A stretch of DNA of 48,435 bases, taken from sequence record OX461087. One strand, written 5' to 3'. How positions within the stretch are numbered: position 1 is the stretch's first letter; each line of letters opens with the position of its first letter. Both the position numbers and the translations under genes were made by a program. Below are positions 1,699 through 38,763 of the stretch, in pieces. The notes beneath the pieces were generated by a model, which was not told the origin of the DNA, searched no databases, and saw only the letters and a list, made by a program, of their open reading frames with translations. The DNA comes from Escherichia phage EcoIv28_Lewi.

Positions 1699-1905
1699 AT
1701 GCCAAGACCACGACGCGAGCCGATGGACATTATCACCAGCATTGTGGAGAAGCGGCAGCCGCTGACACTCCGTGATGTTCGCTACTTTGCCCGTTGCTAT
1801 GTGGCACTGGCTGATATGCCTAAAGATGATATGTATGATTTGATTCGGGCCAATTTTAATGTTGATGAAAATAATCGGGTGACGATGAAGGGGGATGAGA
1901 AATGA
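1699..1905 (+). CDS. hypothetical protein (68 aa)
   Basis: Track ORF 1663..1905 trimmed to ATG preceded by AAAGGAG RBS. Confidence 0.5.
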   Translation: MPRPRREPMDIITSIVEKRQPLTLRDVRYFARCYVALADMPKDDMYDLIRANFNVDENNRVTMKGDEK

Positions 1906-2414
1906 GGCATAGGAGAGATGAGCCGAGCAGGGAGTTTATATTGAGTTACCTTGACTACAATCCACTAACTGGGGAATTTAAATGGCTAAAGACAAGGAAT
2001 AGGATTGCAGAAAAAGGGAGTGTGGCTGGCTACTTAAAGCCAGATGGATATGTGCAAATAATTCTTTGCGGTAGGGCTTTTCTTGCTCACAGATTGGCAT
2101 GGATATGCATTCATGGTGCACCAGCAAGTGAAATGATTGACCACATCAATGGCATTCGCAATGACAACAGGGCATGCAATTTAAGGGAGGCCAGCAAATT
2201 TGAGAATAGCCATAACAAAGCAATGAACAAAAACAACACTAGCGGTATCAAGGGGGTTAACTGGAGTTCATCACACAACAAGTGGCATGCAAGAGTTGGA
2301 GTAAATGGCAAAAGATTCACAGTTGGTTACTTTTCCGACATAAGAGAAGCGGAAGCAAAAATAAAAGAATTCAGGAGAATGCATCACAATGAGTTCACAA
2401 ATCACGGGCGATAA
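1902..2414 (+). CDS. HNH homing endonuclease with C-terminal AP2 domain
   Basis: Motif DHINGIRNDNRACNLRE (HNH) followed by an AP2-like segment (GIKGVNW...WHARV...GYF...EAE); ATGA overlap with upstream gene. Confidence 0.8.
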   Translation: MRHRRDEPSREFILSYLDYNPLTGEFKWLKTRNRIAEKGSVAGYLKPDGYVQIILCGRAFLAHRLAWICIHGAPASEMIDHINGIRNDNRACNLREASKFENSHNKAMNKNNTSGIKGVNWSSSHNKWHARVGVNGKRFTVGYFSDIREAEAKIKEFRRMHHNEFTNHGR

Positions 2415-9500: not shown

Positions 9501-10010
9501 TCAACCTCCACTAATCATGTGTGATAGTCTCTCGCGTCCGGATATTGCAGCAATCTCCGCCTCTTCAATCGTCTTGTAGTAACCAAGTGAGTGTTGCTTC
9601 TTGTTAAAGAAAATTGTTGCGCGATACAGCCCTGACGGCCTATGTAGTGAGACTCCTTTAATTCCTGTGTGATTATTCTTGTATGGTCCTCGCGTTTTTG
9701 CATGATTAATTTTGCAATCAGTCATTTTCCTGCACCCGGCTGGCGTTATAGATAAATCACTCCATTTAGCACTAAATGGGTTTTGTGAAATAGAATAAAC
9801 ACTCTGTCCTTCAGGCGGAAATTCTCCAGTCATATAAAGCCACGCCAGTCGTCTTGCGGTGTATTGTTTTCCCAGGATTGTTATTAAGTAACAATACTTA
9901 GTTATGCTCCCAGCTAATTTCCCGACTCTGCCACCACGCAACCAGATGAAATCACCAGACTCAGGATAATACCTTAACCATGCCTTTAATTCTTTCTGGG
10001 TAAGCATCAC
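9501..10010 (-). CDS. degenerate HNH-AP2 homing-endonuclease paralog
   Basis: N-terminus and AP2-like C-terminus match the other HNH genes, but the DHING..DNR..NLR motif is absent. Confidence 0.6.
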   Translation of the reverse strand: MMLTQKELKAWLRYYPESGDFIWLRGGRVGKLAGSITKYCYLITILGKQYTARRLAWLYMTGEFPPEGQSVYSISQNPFSAKWSDLSITPAGCRKMTDCKINHAKTRGPYKNNHTGIKGVSLHRPSGLYRATIFFNKKQHSLGYYKTIEEAEIAAISGRERLSHMISGG

Positions 10011-11505: not shown

Positions 11506-11536
11506 AAGCCCTCGAATGAGGGCTTTATTTTTATCT
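11506..11536. terminator. bidirectional rho-independent terminator
   Basis: Hairpin AAGCCCTC-GAAT-GAGGGCTT plus T-run between convergent genes. Confidence 0.6.
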
Positions 11537-12955
11537 CCTGCGACGGATTAGCATTCCGCTACCGCGTTGAACGATGTGGTCTCCAAGTCCATAGCGTAAA
11601 CTATCAATCGCGTGATTGTATTTATCAACTATGTCAGGGAGTATGTTGCCTGTTAACTTATCAACCTTATAGCTATACATTGTCATCTCTTCAATGACGT
11701 GTTTACATCTTGAGTGTACGTAAATCCTGTCGCACCCACGAAGCCACGTAATCCCGTCCTCAATGCTCCCAGGCCATTTTGCGCACGGATGAATATCGAA
11801 TCCAGATCGGCGTATATGGCTTATTGTTTCAGGCCTTGCGCAATCCCCATACCATCTGTACTTCTCTGAATTTGGGAATGCTGAGCGCATCGCTTCTGGC
11901 GTGTCAGTTATCTCAAGGCCAACCTTTGCAAAGTCACGATAGATATATAGATTTCTGCGCCCATCTCCCAAATCTTCTACATATGATTCTGTTGCTGCGG
12001 TTGCATCCTGAGAAAAACCAAAGTCAATGCCATAATATGGACCTCCCCATTCTGGAGATGGCTCGAAGTCCAGCGTTTGCCATTTTCCGCCAAGCACGGC
12101 CTCTTCGGAACGCTTGTTGAATAACCCTTCATACACCCACAGATAGCGATCATAATCCACCGCCTTCATCTGGTTCATGTGCTGTTTAAGTTCTTCCGTG
12201 AACCACGGGTTGTGGACGTAGTTAACATTAACAACAACGATGTCATCATCCTGATATATGCCATCAACCATCTTGTCGATGTAAGGCTCAACAAAGTTAG
12301 TCCACGTTGGGTCCGTCTCTTTATTAGGGTTAAAAACAATGATAATTTCAGAGCCAGCCGCACGGACTGTTGGGATAAGCGTATCCCATGACACCTGACT
12401 GATGTTTTCGGATTCTTCACAGAAGACATCCGTAAGGCCAGCCATGCCCTTGATTGCGGTTATGTTTCGCCAAAGGCCACGAAAAACAAACTTTGATCTC
12501 GTTGTGTGGTGTGTTATCTCGCCATCCACGCAACGATATTCCTGAGTGTGCCCCTTCCTGTTTATCTCATCGACCAGCTCGGCATAGCTTGATTCTTTGA
12601 TTGAGTTCTGTATCTCACGGAAGCATCCGACGCGGCTGTTGCGGAATCTTGCCTTTTCTATCAGGTAAGACACGACGTTAGCCGTCTTTCCGCTTCCCCT
12701 ACCACCATAGAACACTTTGAAGCGACGAGGGTAAAGCAATAGCTCCATCCGCTTTGGTATCAGAATTGTTGGCTCTTCGTTTGTTTCCGAGACACCTGTT
12801 GCTGTCATTTTCAGGCGCTTTATAACATTAGGCGTTCCATCAGCAAGAAGTTTATCAACAATGCCAAACACAGCAGACTCAGGCTTTGCAGTTGAGTTGC
12901 CAACTACCTGTTCAAGTTTTTCGATTGCCACACTTGAGAGTCTTTTTCTAGCCAT
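11531..12955 (-). CDS. terminase large subunit
   Basis: 474 aa; Walker A-like GGRGSGKT; ATPase plus nuclease architecture. Confidence 0.9.
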   Translation of the reverse strand: MARKRLSSVAIEKLEQVVGNSTAKPESAVFGIVDKLLADGTPNVIKRLKMTATGVSETNEEPTILIPKRMELLLYPRRFKVFYGGRGSGKTANVVSYLIEKARFRNSRVGCFREIQNSIKESSYAELVDEINRKGHTQEYRCVDGEITHHTTRSKFVFRGLWRNITAIKGMAGLTDVFCEESENISQVSWDTLIPTVRAAGSEIIIVFNPNKETDPTWTNFVEPYIDKMVDGIYQDDDIVVVNVNYVHNPWFTEELKQHMNQMKAVDYDRYLWVYEGLFNKRSEEAVLGGKWQTLDFEPSPEWGGPYYGIDFGFSQDATAATESYVEDLGDGRRNLYIYRDFAKVGLEITDTPEAMRSAFPNSEKYRWYGDCARPETISHIRRSGFDIHPCAKWPGSIEDGITWLRGCDRIYVHSRCKHVIEEMTMYSYKVDKLTGNILPDIVDKYNHAIDSLRYGLGDHIVQRGSGMLIRRRR

Positions 12956-13463
12956 GATTACAAAACTCCCCGTGATTTTTCTCTCTTTCTTCCATTATCT
13001 TTTTGACTGCATCTTCAATGTTGGCGAACCGGCCAAGGTTAACCATCCTGCCATTTATATTTAATCTTGCCATCCACTTGCATCTTGATTTATCCCAATA
13101 CACACCCTTAACCCCTGATGTGTTGTTTGCCTGTAGCTTTTTGTTGTAACCATTTTGCTGATGGTCAGCCTCTCGCAGATTAACAAAACGATTATCAAGC
13201 GTATTGTTGTTTATGTGGTCTATTTCTTTTTCAGGCCAACTACCAGTCATGTAAAGCCAAGCCAGCCTGTGCGATCTATACCACTTTCTTCCAAAATGAA
13301 TATAGTGATACGGTCGCTTGCTACCAACGGAGCCGCATAATTTTATTGTTCCTGCCGGCTTCCCGGGTTTAGCCCTTCCCTGCTTGTGTGGGTTTTTCCA
13401 TGTAAAAATTCCGGTTTCAGGATTGTAATCAAGGATGTGTTTTAATTCTGCTTGCGTAAGCAT
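12948..13463 (-). CDS. HNH-AP2 homing endonuclease between terS and terL
   Basis: Motif EIDHINNNTLDNRFVNLRE plus AP2-like C-terminus; stop overlaps terL start (ATGGCTAG). Confidence 0.8.
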   Translation of the reverse strand: MLTQAELKHILDYNPETGIFTWKNPHKQGRAKPGKPAGTIKLCGSVGSKRPYHYIHFGRKWYRSHRLAWLYMTGSWPEKEIDHINNNTLDNRFVNLREADHQQNGYNKKLQANNTSGVKGVYWDKSRCKWMARLNINGRMVNLGRFANIEDAVKKIMEEREKNHGEFCNHG

Positions 13464-13562
13464 ATATAGATTCCTCATCAGGGCATCATTGAAGTGAATG
13501 CGGCAGGCGGTGATGAGTCGCTTTTCGGGTGCCCCCTAGCCGCATTGATTATTATAAATCAG

Positions 13563-14006
13563 TTACTGTTGCTGCTCCAGTAATTTCTCCAGCCGCTCAA
13601 GTCTCGCGGCGAGTTCGGTTAACTCTTTCACGTCAAGACCAACCTTAATCATAGACACAACCTGAGACGCAACATCAATTGGTAGTTCTCCACTGGAGAC
13701 AGATTGAATGACGTCCTCTATCTGCTCAACTGGAGTGGCATCTTTGCGGTATTTAAAATTAACCGGAGGTGCCATGCTTTTTTGCACGGGGCTGATGCGC
13801 AGGAATATCTCCTTCAGCATCTGCACGCCTTGAGTCGGGTTTTCCTCAGTCATCCTGATTGACGTCCTGATGAATGCGTCAAGGAATTCCTCCTCTCCAA
13901 GCCCGCATCGCTTTAATGCTTCAATAAGCCTGTTTCTGTAGCTTAATCCTCTGCCAGCAGGCTGGTATTCAGAGGAAAATTTCATTACAGGGTTTGGATT
14001 AGCCAT
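13563..14006 (-). CDS. terminase small subunit (putative)
   Basis: 147 aa immediately upstream of terL, coiled-coil C-terminus. Confidence 0.55.
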   Translation of the reverse strand: MANPNPVMKFSSEYQPAGRGLSYRNRLIEALKRCGLGEEEFLDAFIRTSIRMTEENPTQGVQMLKEIFLRISPVQKSMAPPVNFKYRKDATPVEQIEDVIQSVSSGELPIDVASQVVSMIKVGLDVKELTELAARLERLEKLLEQQQ

Positions 14007-14051: not shown

Positions 14052-14079
14052 ATAAAAAAGAACCCGCACAAGGCGGGTT
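14052..14079 (-). terminator. rho-independent terminator
   Basis: On minus strand AACCCGCC-loop-GCGGGTT followed by CTTTTTTATC. Confidence 0.5.
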
Positions 14080-19278: not shown

Positions 19279-20227
19279 TGCTAACTGACATTTTCTCTAT
19301 CAACTCGCCAGCATCATAAATCTTTCTTCTGATTCTCTTCGCCATCCTGATTGTGTCCGCATCATCAGGCAGCATCACCGTAAGCCCTGCGTTTTCCGCA
19401 GCGCAAAGTTCGTCAAATTTATAATTAACTATGCAGCGTAACCGTGCTTTCGTCTCATCACTAACAGAACGCACCACTTCCCACATGTTTTCCGGCGACC
19501 AGCAGCACCAGACATGTGCGCCAGTGAAGTAATGGCATTTCCACGCATCGGCATAATCGGACACCAGATAAATGAACTTCCCGTTATCTTCTCCGATTGG
19601 GCTTATCGCGCCACGAGTGAGTTTTCCGTTGATGGCTGAGTCCTTGTTGTATCCTGCGCGGAAAAAAGTTCTGAATGAATCATCATCCATGCCAATGAAT
19701 GCCACGTTGCACGGCTTCATTGTGTCAGCGCGCATCATCTCAACCGCAATAAGCTCTCCAGATTTCCCTCTGACGACGTTAACGTCGCAACCAATACCAT
19801 TTATCAATGTCCACTCATTCATCGCGACACGCGTCGTTTTATCCATGATTGCGGCGACTTCCTGCTCGGTGATGAAGTCGTCGTTATAATTTATCTTCGG
19901 TAACTCCTTCCTGATTGCCTCCAGCTTTTCGCGTGGATGCATATTCAGGAATCCTCCCAGAGCCTCCAGTGCTTCTGGAAAGCTCATGCCAGAGAGTTTC
20001 ATCAGCCAGTTCATGCCGCTACCGGAACCGCACTGATTGCAGATTGCACCGCCATCGCCTTTTGTTTCGAAGTTGTCATCAAAGCGATACCTGTCTTTTC
20101 CTGAGCATGATGGGCATGGCTGGTGCTTGCCATTGAAAACTCTGCTATCCACATTGACGATGGACATGATGGCAGCCTGCCAGTTTCTGAGCATTTTTTG
20201 CTCGATTTCCTTCCAGTCGTATCTCAT
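19274..20227 (-). CDS. DNA primase (zinc-ribbon plus TOPRIM-like)
   Basis: Motif HQPCPSCSGKDRYRF...CNQCG typical of the primase zinc ribbon; start trimmed to ATG with AGGAAG RBS. Confidence 0.7.
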   Translation of the reverse strand: MRYDWKEIEQKMLRNWQAAIMSIVNVDSRVFNGKHQPCPSCSGKDRYRFDDNFETKGDGGAICNQCGSGSGMNWLMKLSGMSFPEALEALGGFLNMHPREKLEAIRKELPKINYNDDFITEQEVAAIMDKTTRVAMNEWTLINGIGCDVNVVRGKSGELIAVEMMRADTMKPCNVAFIGMDDDSFRTFFRAGYNKDSAINGKLTRGAISPIGEDNGKFIYLVSDYADAWKCHYFTGAHVWCCWSPENMWEVVRSVSDETKARLRCIVNYKFDELCAAENAGLTVMLPDDADTIRMAKRIRRKIYDAGELIEKMSVSR

Positions 20228-20239
20228 AAAATCTTCCTG

Positions 20240-20287
20240 TTGACGATGGTGTAGATTCATTGTAATTTACTCGCATGAAACAATCAA
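20240..20287. promoter_or_regulatory. divergent promoters (primase, minus; HNH/helicase block, plus)
   Basis: Plus: TTGACG...TGTAGATT...TAATTT; minus: TTGATT-N17-TACAAT. Confidence 0.45.
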
Positions 20288-20299
20288 TCGTTACTCGCA

Positions 20300-20947
20300 A
20301 TGAAACAATTAATCGTTACAATAGAGGGTAAGAAATGGCTATCACCATCAAGAAGTGCGAGGTTTGCGGAAATGAGTTTATCGGAACTGCAAAAGCAAAA
20401 TGTTGCTCAGGAAAGTGCAGGGTTAAAAAATGCAGGAACCAAAAGAAAGTCACACATTTCACAGGAGAGGTTAAGGGAGGTTCTTGATTACAACCCTGAT
20501 ACTGGTTATTTCACTTGGATTGTCAGGCTTGGAGCAAGGACTCAGATAGGTGGAAAGCCAGGTACTGTTGATGCTGGTGGTTACCTTAAAATAGCGGTTG
20601 ACGGAAAGGCTTTTATGGCGCATCGCCTTGCTTGGATTTACTTTTATGGAGGAGATATATCAAATTCAGAAATTGACCATATTAACGGCAACAGGATGGA
20701 TAACAGGATATCTAACCTTAGGTTAGCTAACAGAAGTGAAAACAATTGGAACCAAAAGATAAAAAATAGCAACAACTCAGGGGTCAAGGGTGTTAGTTGG
20801 GATAAGGGAGCCAAAAAATGGAGAGCTCAATGTATGGTTAATGGAGTGAAGTATTTCATTGGGAGATTCAATAATATTTCAGATGCAGAGCAGGCTGTGG
20901 TTTCTTTTTGTAGAAAATTCCATGGTAAATTCGTAAACAACGGGTGA
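20300..20947 (+). CDS. HNH-AP2 homing endonuclease (start uncertain; possible frameshift with upstream zinc ribbon)
   Basis: Motif EIDHINGNRMDNRISNLR plus AP2-like C-terminus; conserved LDYNPDTG begins ~57 codons into the track ORF. Confidence 0.65.
   Translation: MKQLIVTIEGKKWLSPSRSARFAEMSLSELQKQNVAQESAGLKNAGTKRKSHISQERLREVLDYNPDTGYFTWIVRLGARTQIGGKPGTVDAGGYLKIAVDGKAFMAHRLAWIYFYGGDISNSEIDHINGNRMDNRISNLRLANRSENNWNQKIKNSNNSGVKGVSWDKGAKKWRAQCMVNGVKYFIGRFNNISDAEQAVVSFCRKFHGKFVNNG
20335..20487 (+). CDS. small zinc-ribbon ORF (~50 aa) out of frame with the downstream HNH domain
   Basis: ATG after GAGGG RBS; CEVCGN...CCSGKC pattern; ends where the conserved HNH N-terminus begins in another frame. 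Confidence 0.35.
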   Translation: MAITIKKCEVCGNEFIGTAKAKCCSGKCRVKKCRNQKKVTHFTGEVKGGS

Positions 20948-20951
20948 TGAA

Positions 20952-22886
20952 ATGCACAAAATAGACAAAATGATTTCAGAGATTGACATTGAGAAGTTAA
21001 AGAAATCAATAAAATTAGGTTCAATAGAGCCATATGATTACCAATGGCTTGTTTACGCAAAGTGCGCTGAGGTTATTCGTAATTTTGGCAAGAAACCTGA
21101 ACCAAGCTATGTTACAGCGTCGGTTTCATCAGGGAAGACGGTGATGATTTCAATGCTTTGCAGTAGATTTCAGGATATGGGGTGGGATGGTCTTGTGATT
21201 TCAAGGCAGGGGGAAATAGCCGAGCAGAATGCTGAAATGATGTGGGAGTGCGGTGTAAAAAACTCTCTTTATAGTGCATCTCTTGGCAGGAAAAGCACAG
21301 CATATCCTATTATATGCGGCACTGAAGGAACAATCGTGAACGCACTTTTTGATAAAAAAGATGAATCAAATGGTGACGTTAAGAAAGGTGGGTTGAGTGA
21401 TTTTACCCCAAGATTTTGCCTTTGCGATGAAGGGCACCAAGTACCGTGGCAGGACATTGTCGGTGGTGAACCAACAACACAGTATGGCGTTATACTTACC
21501 GAGTTAAATCGGCGCTGTAAGGCAAAGTATGGACATGACATGATAACTATCGGATTCACTGGAAGCCCTTTCCGTGGCACCGAGTCAATGAAAGGTGCGT
21601 ATTGGAAGAATGAAATAATAAACATTGACACAAAGTACATGGTAGATCGCGGATTTGTTGTTCCAACAATCTTTGGACTTCATGATGTTGATGATTTGCA
21701 ATACGACCTTTCATCATTTCATGGCTCTGATATTGACGGGACGCAGGATTTCACTGCTGAACAACTTAAGCAGATGCAGGAAGAAATACTTGAACAAGGC
21801 ACTCTCACACAGAAAATCATGCTTAAAGTGATGGAGCTTACAAAAGATAGAAATGGAGTGTTAATTACCTGTGCAGGCAAGAAGCATTGTTTAGAAGCTG
21901 CTAAATATCTGCCAGAAGGAAGCTACGCCATTGTCACTGAAGATATGGGGCAAAAAGCAAGACGTAAGGCACTAAAGGATGCATACACTGGAAAAATAAA
22001 ATACACATTCCAGATCGCCGCGCTTACGACAGGAGTCAACATTCCGCTTTGGGATACAAGCGTGATATTACGAAAAATAATGTCGCTCACCCTTCTTGTT
22101 CAGTTGCTTGGTCGCGGTATGCGACTGCTGAAGAAAGAGCAAATTGATGCCGGGTATCATAAAGAAGACCATCTGGTTCTTGATTTCTCAGGCACGATGT
22201 TTGAGCTTGGTCAGTTGTATGAAGACCCAATTCTGGAAGAGGCCGAAGCGCAACGCTCAAAACGCAGTGGAGAACAGGTTCCGTGCCCGAAATGCGGAAC
22301 GATGAACAGCCCATATGCGCGTCGCTGCATTGGCAAAGATGCGCTATCGCCAGATGGTCGTTGCGAAGAGTTTTTCAGTTATATCCGCTGTGGATTTGAT
22401 AAGCACGGTATCCGCATTTTTGATGATGGTTGCGGAACTAAAAACGACCCTACGGCGCGCTATTGCCGACATTGCGATCATGTTTTGCGCGACCCTAATG
22501 CGGCTCTTAATGAACGTGCCTATACGGATAACGAATGGGCTGATGTTATGGATTTCAAGGTTCAGTTAACGAAGGACGGAGAAGGTATTTTGTATCGCTA
22601 CTGGATTAATCGTTGTGATGGCAAAGAGGGCTGGGCTAACGAGGTTTTCTACCCTTACGGCGGAGCAACCCACATGAAAAACATGTTCAAGGCAAAGGCC
22701 ATCTTCCCTCACCTTGATGATAAATCAATAGCTGGGAAAATCCTGAAATGCCAGAACGCCAAGCAGTTCATGATGTATGCGGGGTTGATTAAAGCGCCAA
22801 AACGCATCACACATCGTATTAACGATAAAGGCCGTGACATAATACACAGAAAAGATTTTGCAGGTGAGCAAAGTGAAGCAGCTTGA
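20952..22886 (+). CDS. SF2 (DEAH-type) helicase with C-terminal zinc ribbon
   Basis: Walker A SSGKT, motif II DEGHQ, C-terminal CPKCG...CRHCDH. Confidence 0.85.
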   Translation: MHKIDKMISEIDIEKLKKSIKLGSIEPYDYQWLVYAKCAEVIRNFGKKPEPSYVTASVSSGKTVMISMLCSRFQDMGWDGLVISRQGEIAEQNAEMMWECGVKNSLYSASLGRKSTAYPIICGTEGTIVNALFDKKDESNGDVKKGGLSDFTPRFCLCDEGHQVPWQDIVGGEPTTQYGVILTELNRRCKAKYGHDMITIGFTGSPFRGTESMKGAYWKNEIINIDTKYMVDRGFVVPTIFGLHDVDDLQYDLSSFHGSDIDGTQDFTAEQLKQMQEEILEQGTLTQKIMLKVMELTKDRNGVLITCAGKKHCLEAAKYLPEGSYAIVTEDMGQKARRKALKDAYTGKIKYTFQIAALTTGVNIPLWDTSVILRKIMSLTLLVQLLGRGMRLLKKEQIDAGYHKEDHLVLDFSGTMFELGQLYEDPILEEAEAQRSKRSGEQVPCPKCGTMNSPYARRCIGKDALSPDGRCEEFFSYIRCGFDKHGIRIFDDGCGTKNDPTARYCRHCDHVLRDPNAALNERAYTDNEWADVMDFKVQLTKDGEGILYRYWINRCDGKEGWANEVFYPYGGATHMKNMFKAKAIFPHLDDKSIAGKILKCQNAKQFMMYAGLIKAPKRITHRINDKGRDIIHRKDFAGEQSEAA

Positions 22887-38686: not shown

Positions 38687-38763
38687 GGACGCGTAGCTTA
38701 ATTGGTTAAAGCAACCGACTCATAATCGGCTGATTGAAGGTTCAAATCCGTCCGTGTCCACCA
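38687..38763 (+). tRNA. tRNA, anticodon CAT (Met, or Ile if lysidine-modified)
   Basis: Hand-folded cloverleaf: acceptor GGACGCG/CGTGTCC, anticodon loop CTCATAA, T-loop TTCAAAT, encoded 3' CCA. Confidence 0.8.

Follow-up and report, generated by a model that had tools for sequence, protein, structure and literature searches.

A probable free-standing HNH-AP2 homing endonuclease gene in a polymorphic slot before the large terminase gene of Escherichia phage EcoIv28_Lewi

The sequence of Escherichia phage EcoIv28_Lewi (OX461087; a stretch of 48,435 nt, referred to as the window) contains an HNH-AP2 endonuclease gene directly before terL, the gene for the large terminase. Our analysis indicates that this is very probably a free-standing homing endonuclease gene (HEG) of the HNH_3 (HNN) plus AP2 class, located in a polymorphic slot before terL, and not a terminase cofactor. 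An earlier note on this DNA had described an HNH-AP2 homing endonuclease between terS and terL, translationally coupled to terL, and had left a role in packaging open. The open reading frame (ORF) it pointed to is indeed present on the minus strand and matches both domains, and the homing-type reading gains support from population-genetic signatures, paralogy, fold and purifying selection. The packaging role is effectively excluded, since the HEG is absent from relatives with 91-98% identical terL.

The window falls within a group of siphophages (~45-48 kb) of Salmonella, Klebsiella, Escherichia and Shigella, with IME207 (98% identical over the region), Sf11, Skate, SB28 and Vi II-E1 among its relatives. 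We compared 27 loci from GenBank and IMG/VR (duplicates between both sources included) in which the terL protein is 82-100% identical. An HNH gene is found in the slot in 16 of the 27 loci, whereas 11 have none. Conservation of the gene in all relatives, which the earlier note had named as part of the evidence against its reading, is thus not what is seen. Relatives of the kind it proposed for comparison, with terS directly next to terL, do exist: at 91-98% terL identity either the upstream gene overlaps terL, as in the Seszw_1-type phages, or a small ORF fills the slot, as in SB28, KE08 and Vi II-E1 (45 aa, hydrophobic). Small ORFs just upstream of terL are also seen in other HEG-less loci (L001 2926..3063, L004 2926..3063, and L009, L018, L020 and L021); they are about 45-50 aa long, partly hydrophobic and usually overlap the stop and start codons of the flanking genes.

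The HEG alleles of the 16 loci are 45-68% identical to each other, and all sit in the same slot. Allele 1 (97-100% identical to the window HEG) occurs in IME207, Sf11 and two IMG/VR contigs; in GenBank it is present in only four named phages. One locus (L019, allele A1b) carries an allele 68% identical to that of the window, and the remaining ones (INT55, PSH-1 and others) are 45-49% identical. On a neighbour-joining tree of terL nt 31-1425 the HEG states are interleaved, and allele 1 adjoins all three alleles of the gene upstream of the slot.

Divergence along the locus shows that the cassette is younger than its flanks. Carriers of allele 1 show 0.2-2.6% divergence from one another in the spacer, the HEG and terL nt 1-30, whereas the more diverged of these pairs reach ~23% in terL nt 31-300, 6-15% in the remainder of terL and up to 60% at the nucleotide level in the upstream gene. 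The second main allele (PSH-1 type) likewise has a cassette that is closer than its flanks. Compared with other alleles, the HEG interior is mostly 35-65% identical. Its last ~30 nt are identical to the two main alternative alleles at 27-30 of 30 positions (22-24 of 30 in L019 and L026), as are the first ~25 nt of the spacer plus the end of the upstream gene at 27-28 of 30. The cassette borders, namely the DNA for the C-terminus of the upstream gene and terL from about nt 28, are near-identical across relatives, even across divergent upstream-gene alleles. The mobile unit runs from the final codons of the upstream gene through a structured leader of ~100-130 nt and the HEG to about nt 25 of terL. 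It occurs sporadically at one conserved site and is younger than its surroundings, which is the pattern that characterizes a HEG.

These patterns bear directly on the possibility that the protein is an accessory packaging nuclease that cuts concatemers together with the terminase, in the manner of HK97 gp74, the HNH proteins of staphylococcal cos phages or Skunavirus HrdP. The HEG does adjoin and overlap terL, terminase-adjacent HNH proteins can be essential for packaging (PMC3592412; PMC12967558), and homing and packaging roles need not exclude each other (Barth et al., PMC10448857). However, because the gene is missing from phages with such closely similar terL (see above), the terminase does not need it. 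Moreover, the terL genes of phages with and without the HEG are interleaved on the tree, the cassette is much younger than terL, and paralogues are located at unrelated loci. The protein is also of the HNH_3/HNN type and lacks the [CxxC]2 zinc site that, according to PMC3592412, defines the terminase-associated class. We therefore consider a packaging function highly improbable.

The association with the HEG extends only a short distance into terL. In the 1425 nt of this gene, differences between HEG-bearing and HEG-less genomes that hold at >=80% in both groups are confined to nt 7, 9, 13, 22, 23 and 25, plus nt 318. Divergence in terL nt 1-30 is 0.316 between the groups against 0.085 and 0.118 within them, and from nt 31 on the between-group value is about equal to the within-group value. 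The tract reads ATGGCTAGAAAAAGACTCTCAAGTGTGGCA in genomes with the HEG and ATGGCTCGTAAACGCCTnTCnGCnCTGGCA in those without. The latter version is more GC-rich, and a preference of AP2 domains for GC-rich DNA has been reported (PMC10448857). The linkage suggests that the HEG-less tract holds the recognition or cleavage site, and that the tract of the carriers is a resistant version travelling with the gene. In a mixed infection the enzyme would bind DNA through its N-terminal beta-sheet region and AP2 domain, and would nick or cut the HEG-less allele, either right at the 5' end of terL or close to it. Repair from the HEG-bearing genome would then copy the cassette together with the resistant tract. 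Since terL is essential, the insertion would keep it expressed, by termination-reinitiation at the stop/start overlap (ATGGCTAG) and/or by way of an internal Shine-Dalgarno (SD) sequence.

It is unlikely, in our view, that the cassette is simply exchanged by ordinary homologous recombination while the nuclease is kept for another use, such as degrading or keeping out co-infecting relatives or attacking the DNA of the host or of satellites. Near-identical flanks bracketing divergent alleles fit such an exchange, as does the shuffling of upstream-gene alleles and small slot ORFs that encode no nuclease; purifying selection, for its part, shows only that the protein is used. What this explanation does not require is the tight linkage of any HEG allele to the 25-nt terL tract with no association beyond it, whereas target-site immunity predicts exactly this. 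The fold relative I-HmuI, furthermore, is a bona fide homing enzyme. Finally, this alternative overlaps with homing itself, as a single activity underlies both homing and the exclusion of competitors.

Several points nevertheless weigh against homing. The target site follows from linkage only, and cleavage, nicking and super-Mendelian inheritance are predictions. Conserved flanks alone would allow exchange of the cassette by ordinary recombination, and the comparison set contains the duplicates mentioned above. Between the window and the KpV2811-type phages (discussed below) the change may have been an insertion or, in the other direction, a loss or replacement. In addition, the HEG-linked terL tract could reflect co-adaptation with the 3' end of the HEG through RNA structure: a 12-bp hairpin enclosing the terL AUG is possible between GGGAGUUUU plus CAC in the HEG 3' end and AAGACUCUC plus GUG in the tract. 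The energy of this hairpin, however, is no better than that of shuffles (z -1.2), and the one compensatory pair among 7 distinct sequences is no different from column shuffles.

The HNH_3 match of the protein in Pfam reaches 55.1 bits against a cut-off of 24.8 (E 5.7e-15). The Pfam AP2 match stays below the gathering score (26.8 against 33.3 bits) though its E value is 6.5e-6, and a precomputed PF00847 match is present in many homologues. In a structure model built from 59 homologues (mean predicted local distance difference test score, pLDDT, 94) the AP2 region is predicted to form a sheet of three strands against a helix and can be superposed on AP2 domains of solved structure, and structure comparison of the model gives a resemblance to a solved HNH_3/I-HmuI-like member; a sequence search of the PDB with the protein matched no chain. 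In the 59-sequence alignment D82-H83, N95 and N104 are nearly invariant columns which, by analogy, would supply the catalytic His and both Asn residues of the beta-beta-alpha-metal motif. None of the three Cys residues is part of a CxxC pair, so read directly, and a profile search gave no PF01844 match. The HRLAWL, WP, DNR and NLRE boxes match the HNN-AP2 class of PMC2248197.

Could the gene be an inactive, decaying former HEG that is retained since its 3' end gives terL a translation start? Expression of terL would depend on the last 30 nt of the HEG, so that deletion is constrained, and in one of the window's paralogues (9501..10010) HNH_3 is no longer detected. On the other hand, the ORF is intact and every nearly invariant residue of the family is present. 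The ratio of nonsynonymous to synonymous substitution rates (dN/dS) is 0.12-0.24 among the allele-1 copies, which, together with the kept residues, argues that the protein is in use. Near-identical copies in divergent backgrounds moreover point to recent transfers. We regard a decayed remnant as very unlikely.

Comparison with known systems places the gene among free-standing HEGs. By its modelled fold the protein appears to be a relative of I-HmuI (PDB 1U3E), the intron-encoded HNH homing nickase of Bacillus phage SPO1. The gene for I-HmuI lies within a group I intron, and its product terminates in a helix-turn-helix domain, whereas the window HEG is free-standing and has AP2 at its C-terminal end. 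The free-standing Seg and Mob HEGs of phage T4 resemble it in their position between conserved genes, presence/absence polymorphism and linkage to flanking markers. For these, intronless homing with co-conversion of flanks was shown experimentally, while homing of the window HEG is predicted from sequence; Seg enzymes are of the GIY-YIG type, and Mob enzymes are HNH proteins without AP2.

HNN-AP2 genes have been described as multi-copy freestanding endonucleases of phages (PMC2248197). The enzymes of the Xanthomonas phages Xp10, OP1 and Xop411 and of T5, T1 and Rtp share with the window HEG their architecture, the four boxes and the terminal N; they likewise lack CxxC pairs and occur in several copies per genome, some of them degenerate. 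The flanks of the Xanthomonas-phage genes showed no conservation, and these genes were supposed to move independently of sequence (PMC2248197); here, in contrast, slot, flanks and candidate target tract are sharply defined. In ICP1 and other phages, HNH-AP2 HEGs are found beside essential genes, 14% of them near terminase, and mark the break points of recombination (Barth et al. 2023, PMC10448857). Like these IPA-HNH genes, the window HEG combines HNH and AP2 beside an essential gene, and its slot separates shuffled upstream-gene and terL alleles. The HNH domains of the IPA-HNH proteins have diverged too far to be matched by the Pfam HNH_3 profile (PMC10448857), whereas the window HEG is a canonical HNH_3 protein (55 bits). 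HK97 gp74 and Skunavirus HrdP are also encoded in the packaging gene cluster, but they carry the [CxxC]2 zinc site and are conserved in their own phage groups (PMC3592412; PMC12967558). HrdP is essential for infective virions and gp74 cooperates with the terminase in cos cleavage in vitro (same sources). The window HEG differs in having no zinc site and in being absent from many near-identical relatives.

As HNH-AP2 genes beside essential phage genes are well described, this one adds little in principle as a HEG. Its value lies in a clean natural experiment, in which one slot holds competing HEG alleles, empty sites and small unrelated ORFs, and in which the junction relative to KpV2811-type phages can be placed with single-base precision, at the start codon of terL itself. 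The 25-nt candidate target or immunity tract can be tested with the cultured phages IME207, Sf11, SB28 and Seszw_1. For annotators there is a caution as well: an HNH gene beside a terminase gene is not always a packaging factor.

The minus strand carries every gene of the region (Table 1). ORF finding extends the HEG to an upstream ATG at 13478, giving a reading of 176 aa, but the true start is almost certainly the ATG at 13463..13461. This start is favoured because GAGGA lies 8 nt upstream of it, because the IME207 copy in GenBank (171 aa, labelled "homing endonuclease") is annotated from the same position, and because in KpV2811 and pIS4-A a sequence that is 100% identical up to and with the ATG serves as the translation start of terL. 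The 176-aa reading, which has no SD sequence, was rejected.

The overlap of HEG stop and terL start that the earlier note reported can be read directly in the sequence: the stop TAG (12948..12950) lies 5 nt inside terL, which opens with ATG at 12953..12955. The overlap is identical across the three main HEG alleles. In the relative L026 terL codon 3 is CGT, and its HEG runs three nt further, to a TAA stop. In most HEG-less relatives examined terL overlaps the stop of the preceding ORF, so that coupling looks common to the slot and preserved by the HEG rather than a novelty of the window genome. Given the 8-nt overlap and its counterparts in these relatives, translational coupling from the HEG to terL is plausible.

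Comparison with KpV2811, pIS4-A and pYD38-A resolves the junction further. The 99-nt spacer through the ATG is 100% identical to the segment directly before terL in these phages. There the ATG opens terL itself (GAGGAATCTATATATG GCA CGC AAA AGA, reading MARKR), whereas the window has exactly 508 extra nt (12953..13460) after terL's own SD and ATG. The HEG starts on the SD and ATG that serve terL in KpV2811-type phages, and its last 30 nt provide GGGGAG and a new ATG for terL. As spacer and HEG alleles diverged together, the comparison suggests that the spacer is part of the cassette and that the KpV2811 state is possibly derived. The terL of KpV2811 (L005 1..2503) and pIS4-A (L007), and also of L133 and L158, encodes 839 aa, with the Walker A motif interrupted by some 365 aa of an intein-like insert (GGRG/CLAIGT...VTHN/SGKT, slashes marking the borders); it is directly preceded by the same int-alpA leader as is found in the window.

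This leader, located in the spacer, was recognized by the Rfam family RF02996 (int-alpA RNA), with a covariance-model score of 42.6 bits against a gathering score of 35.8 over the full length (1-71). The hairpin-2 loop ACUCAUCAC (13510..13518) has two complementary segments, UGAUG (13484..13488) and UGAUGAG (13474..13480), and the latter segment overlaps the GAGGA of the HEG. In allele A1b (L019) the spacer scores 31.5 bits, below gathering, and loop and both downstream segments have changed in concert (UUGUCAU with AUGACA and UGACAA). The outer stem and both hairpins recur in the spacers of the second main allele (INT55, PSH-1 type), where one outer-stem pair covaries GC/AU/GU; these spacers are below every Rfam threshold. 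Despite the covariance-model match, plain minimum free energy folding of the 99-nt spacer is no better than shuffles (z -0.9). A promoter and terminator scan of the spacer found none, with counts equal to those of shuffles.

A motif-pattern scan of IMG/VR phage contigs yielded at least 120 stretches of this type (loci L050 onward). Among the matches listed, 58 distinct hairpin-2 loops have an exact complement downstream of the closing stem with a mean length of 6.2 nt, compared to 3.3 nt for permuted loop/tail pairs (300 permutations, none above 4.4). Two complementary segments are present for 41 of these 58 loops, and in 39 one segment lies 4-16 nt before a start codon. It is usually the second segment that overlaps the SD sequence of the following ORF. 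The genes that follow are diverse: 50 non-redundant representatives of the listed matches include HNH (5), HNH_5 (2), HNH_2 (2), HNH_3-AP2 (1) and T5orf172 (2), where some of the HNH-family matches may fall on the same protein, and further genes are DUF1376, Dam, Rha and others. The idea that these motifs are specific to HNH-AP2 genes was rejected, as only few of the ~90 non-redundant phage instances listed have one nearby. It may be that int-alpA leaders travel between phages as expression modules before diverse genes, including free-standing nucleases of several families. The 16-nt leader end of the INT55/PSH-1-type allele, TAACCGAGGATTCAAT, also precedes an ORF other than HNH-AP2 in an unrelated IMG/VR contig (L169, about 2000..2080), which hints at leader modules being exchanged between gene cassettes. 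SB28 has no HEG at terL yet contains another HNH-AP2 gene elsewhere in its genome (leader at L120 667..705), which is preceded by a homologous int-alpA-like leader sharing the hairpin-2 sequence and TGATGAGGAATC before the start.

As a tentative lead, which we think may well prove wrong, the spacer could be a working int-alpA translational leader in which the hairpin-2 loop acts as an anti-SD sequence and pairs with either a decoy copy or the true downstream SD. The gene under its control would be the HEG in the window and terL in KpV2811-type phages. If true, this would give the first functional context for RF02996, with a selfish nuclease and an essential packaging gene sharing one controlled start site. 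As the family has no known function, the lead could matter more than the HEG. A literature search gave no usable account of int-alpA, and the discovery paper's main text does not mention it.

The "terS" label that the earlier note gave to the 147-aa upstream gene finds no backing from family, structure or annotation. The product has no Pfam or NCBIfam match, its PHROG match is to a group of unknown function only, and no PDB relative was found by sequence or by profile. Its model is all-helical (pLDDT 78) and gave no informative fold match, known small terminases included, and homologues are labelled "hypothetical protein" in every sampled GenBank record. From its size and position (it overlaps terL directly in some relatives, HEG-less Seszw_1 among them) it is likely to be the small terminase gene all the same. 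In the window it is neither next to the HEG nor coupled to it, the structured 99-nt spacer lying between them. Three alleles of this gene, with 44-51% protein identity among them and a near-identical C-terminal ELAARLERLEKLLEQQ, are shuffled relative to terL (loci L001-L028), which makes the slot a recombination hot spot even apart from the HEG.

Table 1. Positions of the HEG, its parts, its neighbours and its paralogues in the window
Feature	Position	Strand	Remarks
terL, large terminase	11531..12955	-	474 aa; Terminase_3 124.9 bits, Terminase_3C 49.3 bits
HEG-linked tract, first 25 nt of terL	12931..12955	-	candidate immune target version or co-conversion tract
Free-standing HNH-AP2 homing-type endonuclease gene (probable HEG), allele 1	12948..13463	-	171 aa + stop
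Overlap ATGGCTAG, HEG stop and terL start codon	12948..12955	-	8 nt; direct reading
GGGGAG, SD-like sequence for terL in HEG 3' end	12966..12971	-	10 nt before terL ATG
AP2 DNA-binding domain	12978..13118	-	aa 116-162
HNH_3 catalytic domain, HNN type	13149..13277	-	aa 63-105; Pfam stretch 68-110 of the 176-aa reading
Spacer / HEG 5' leader	13464..13562	-	99 nt; contains SD GAGGA 13472..13476
Rfam RF02996 (int-alpA RNA) match	13483..13546	-	outer stem and two hairpins; also L005 2523..2586, L019 2410..2474
147-aa upstream gene, putative small terminase	13563..14006	-	position and size only
HNH-AP2 paralogue	1902..2414	+	32-44% identity range
HNH-AP2 paralogue without detectable HNH_3 (Pfam)	9501..10010	-	32-44% identity range
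HNH-AP2 paralogue	about 20438..20947 (20300/20438 start)	+	4 nt upstream of helicase gene 20952..22886

The window contains three further HNH-AP2 paralogues, 32-44% identical to the HEG before terL; the one without a detectable HNH_3 domain may be degenerate. The multi-copy pattern next to essential genes matches the published descriptions of HNN-AP2 and IPA-HNH genes. The primase/helicase junction (window 19700..21700) is a second polymorphic slot, in which relatives carry different HNH "homing endonuclease" alleles; the window's own allele was found there at high identity in no GenBank phage.

Two minor features complete the picture. A terminator-like hairpin with a T run (window 14061..14079, minus strand) shortly precedes the putative small terminase gene, and the packaging transcription unit may begin there. 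A tRNA gene is located at window 38687..38760 on the plus strand (Rfam tRNA, 63.4 bits), with the anticodon loop CUCAUAA and, probably, the anticodon CAU.

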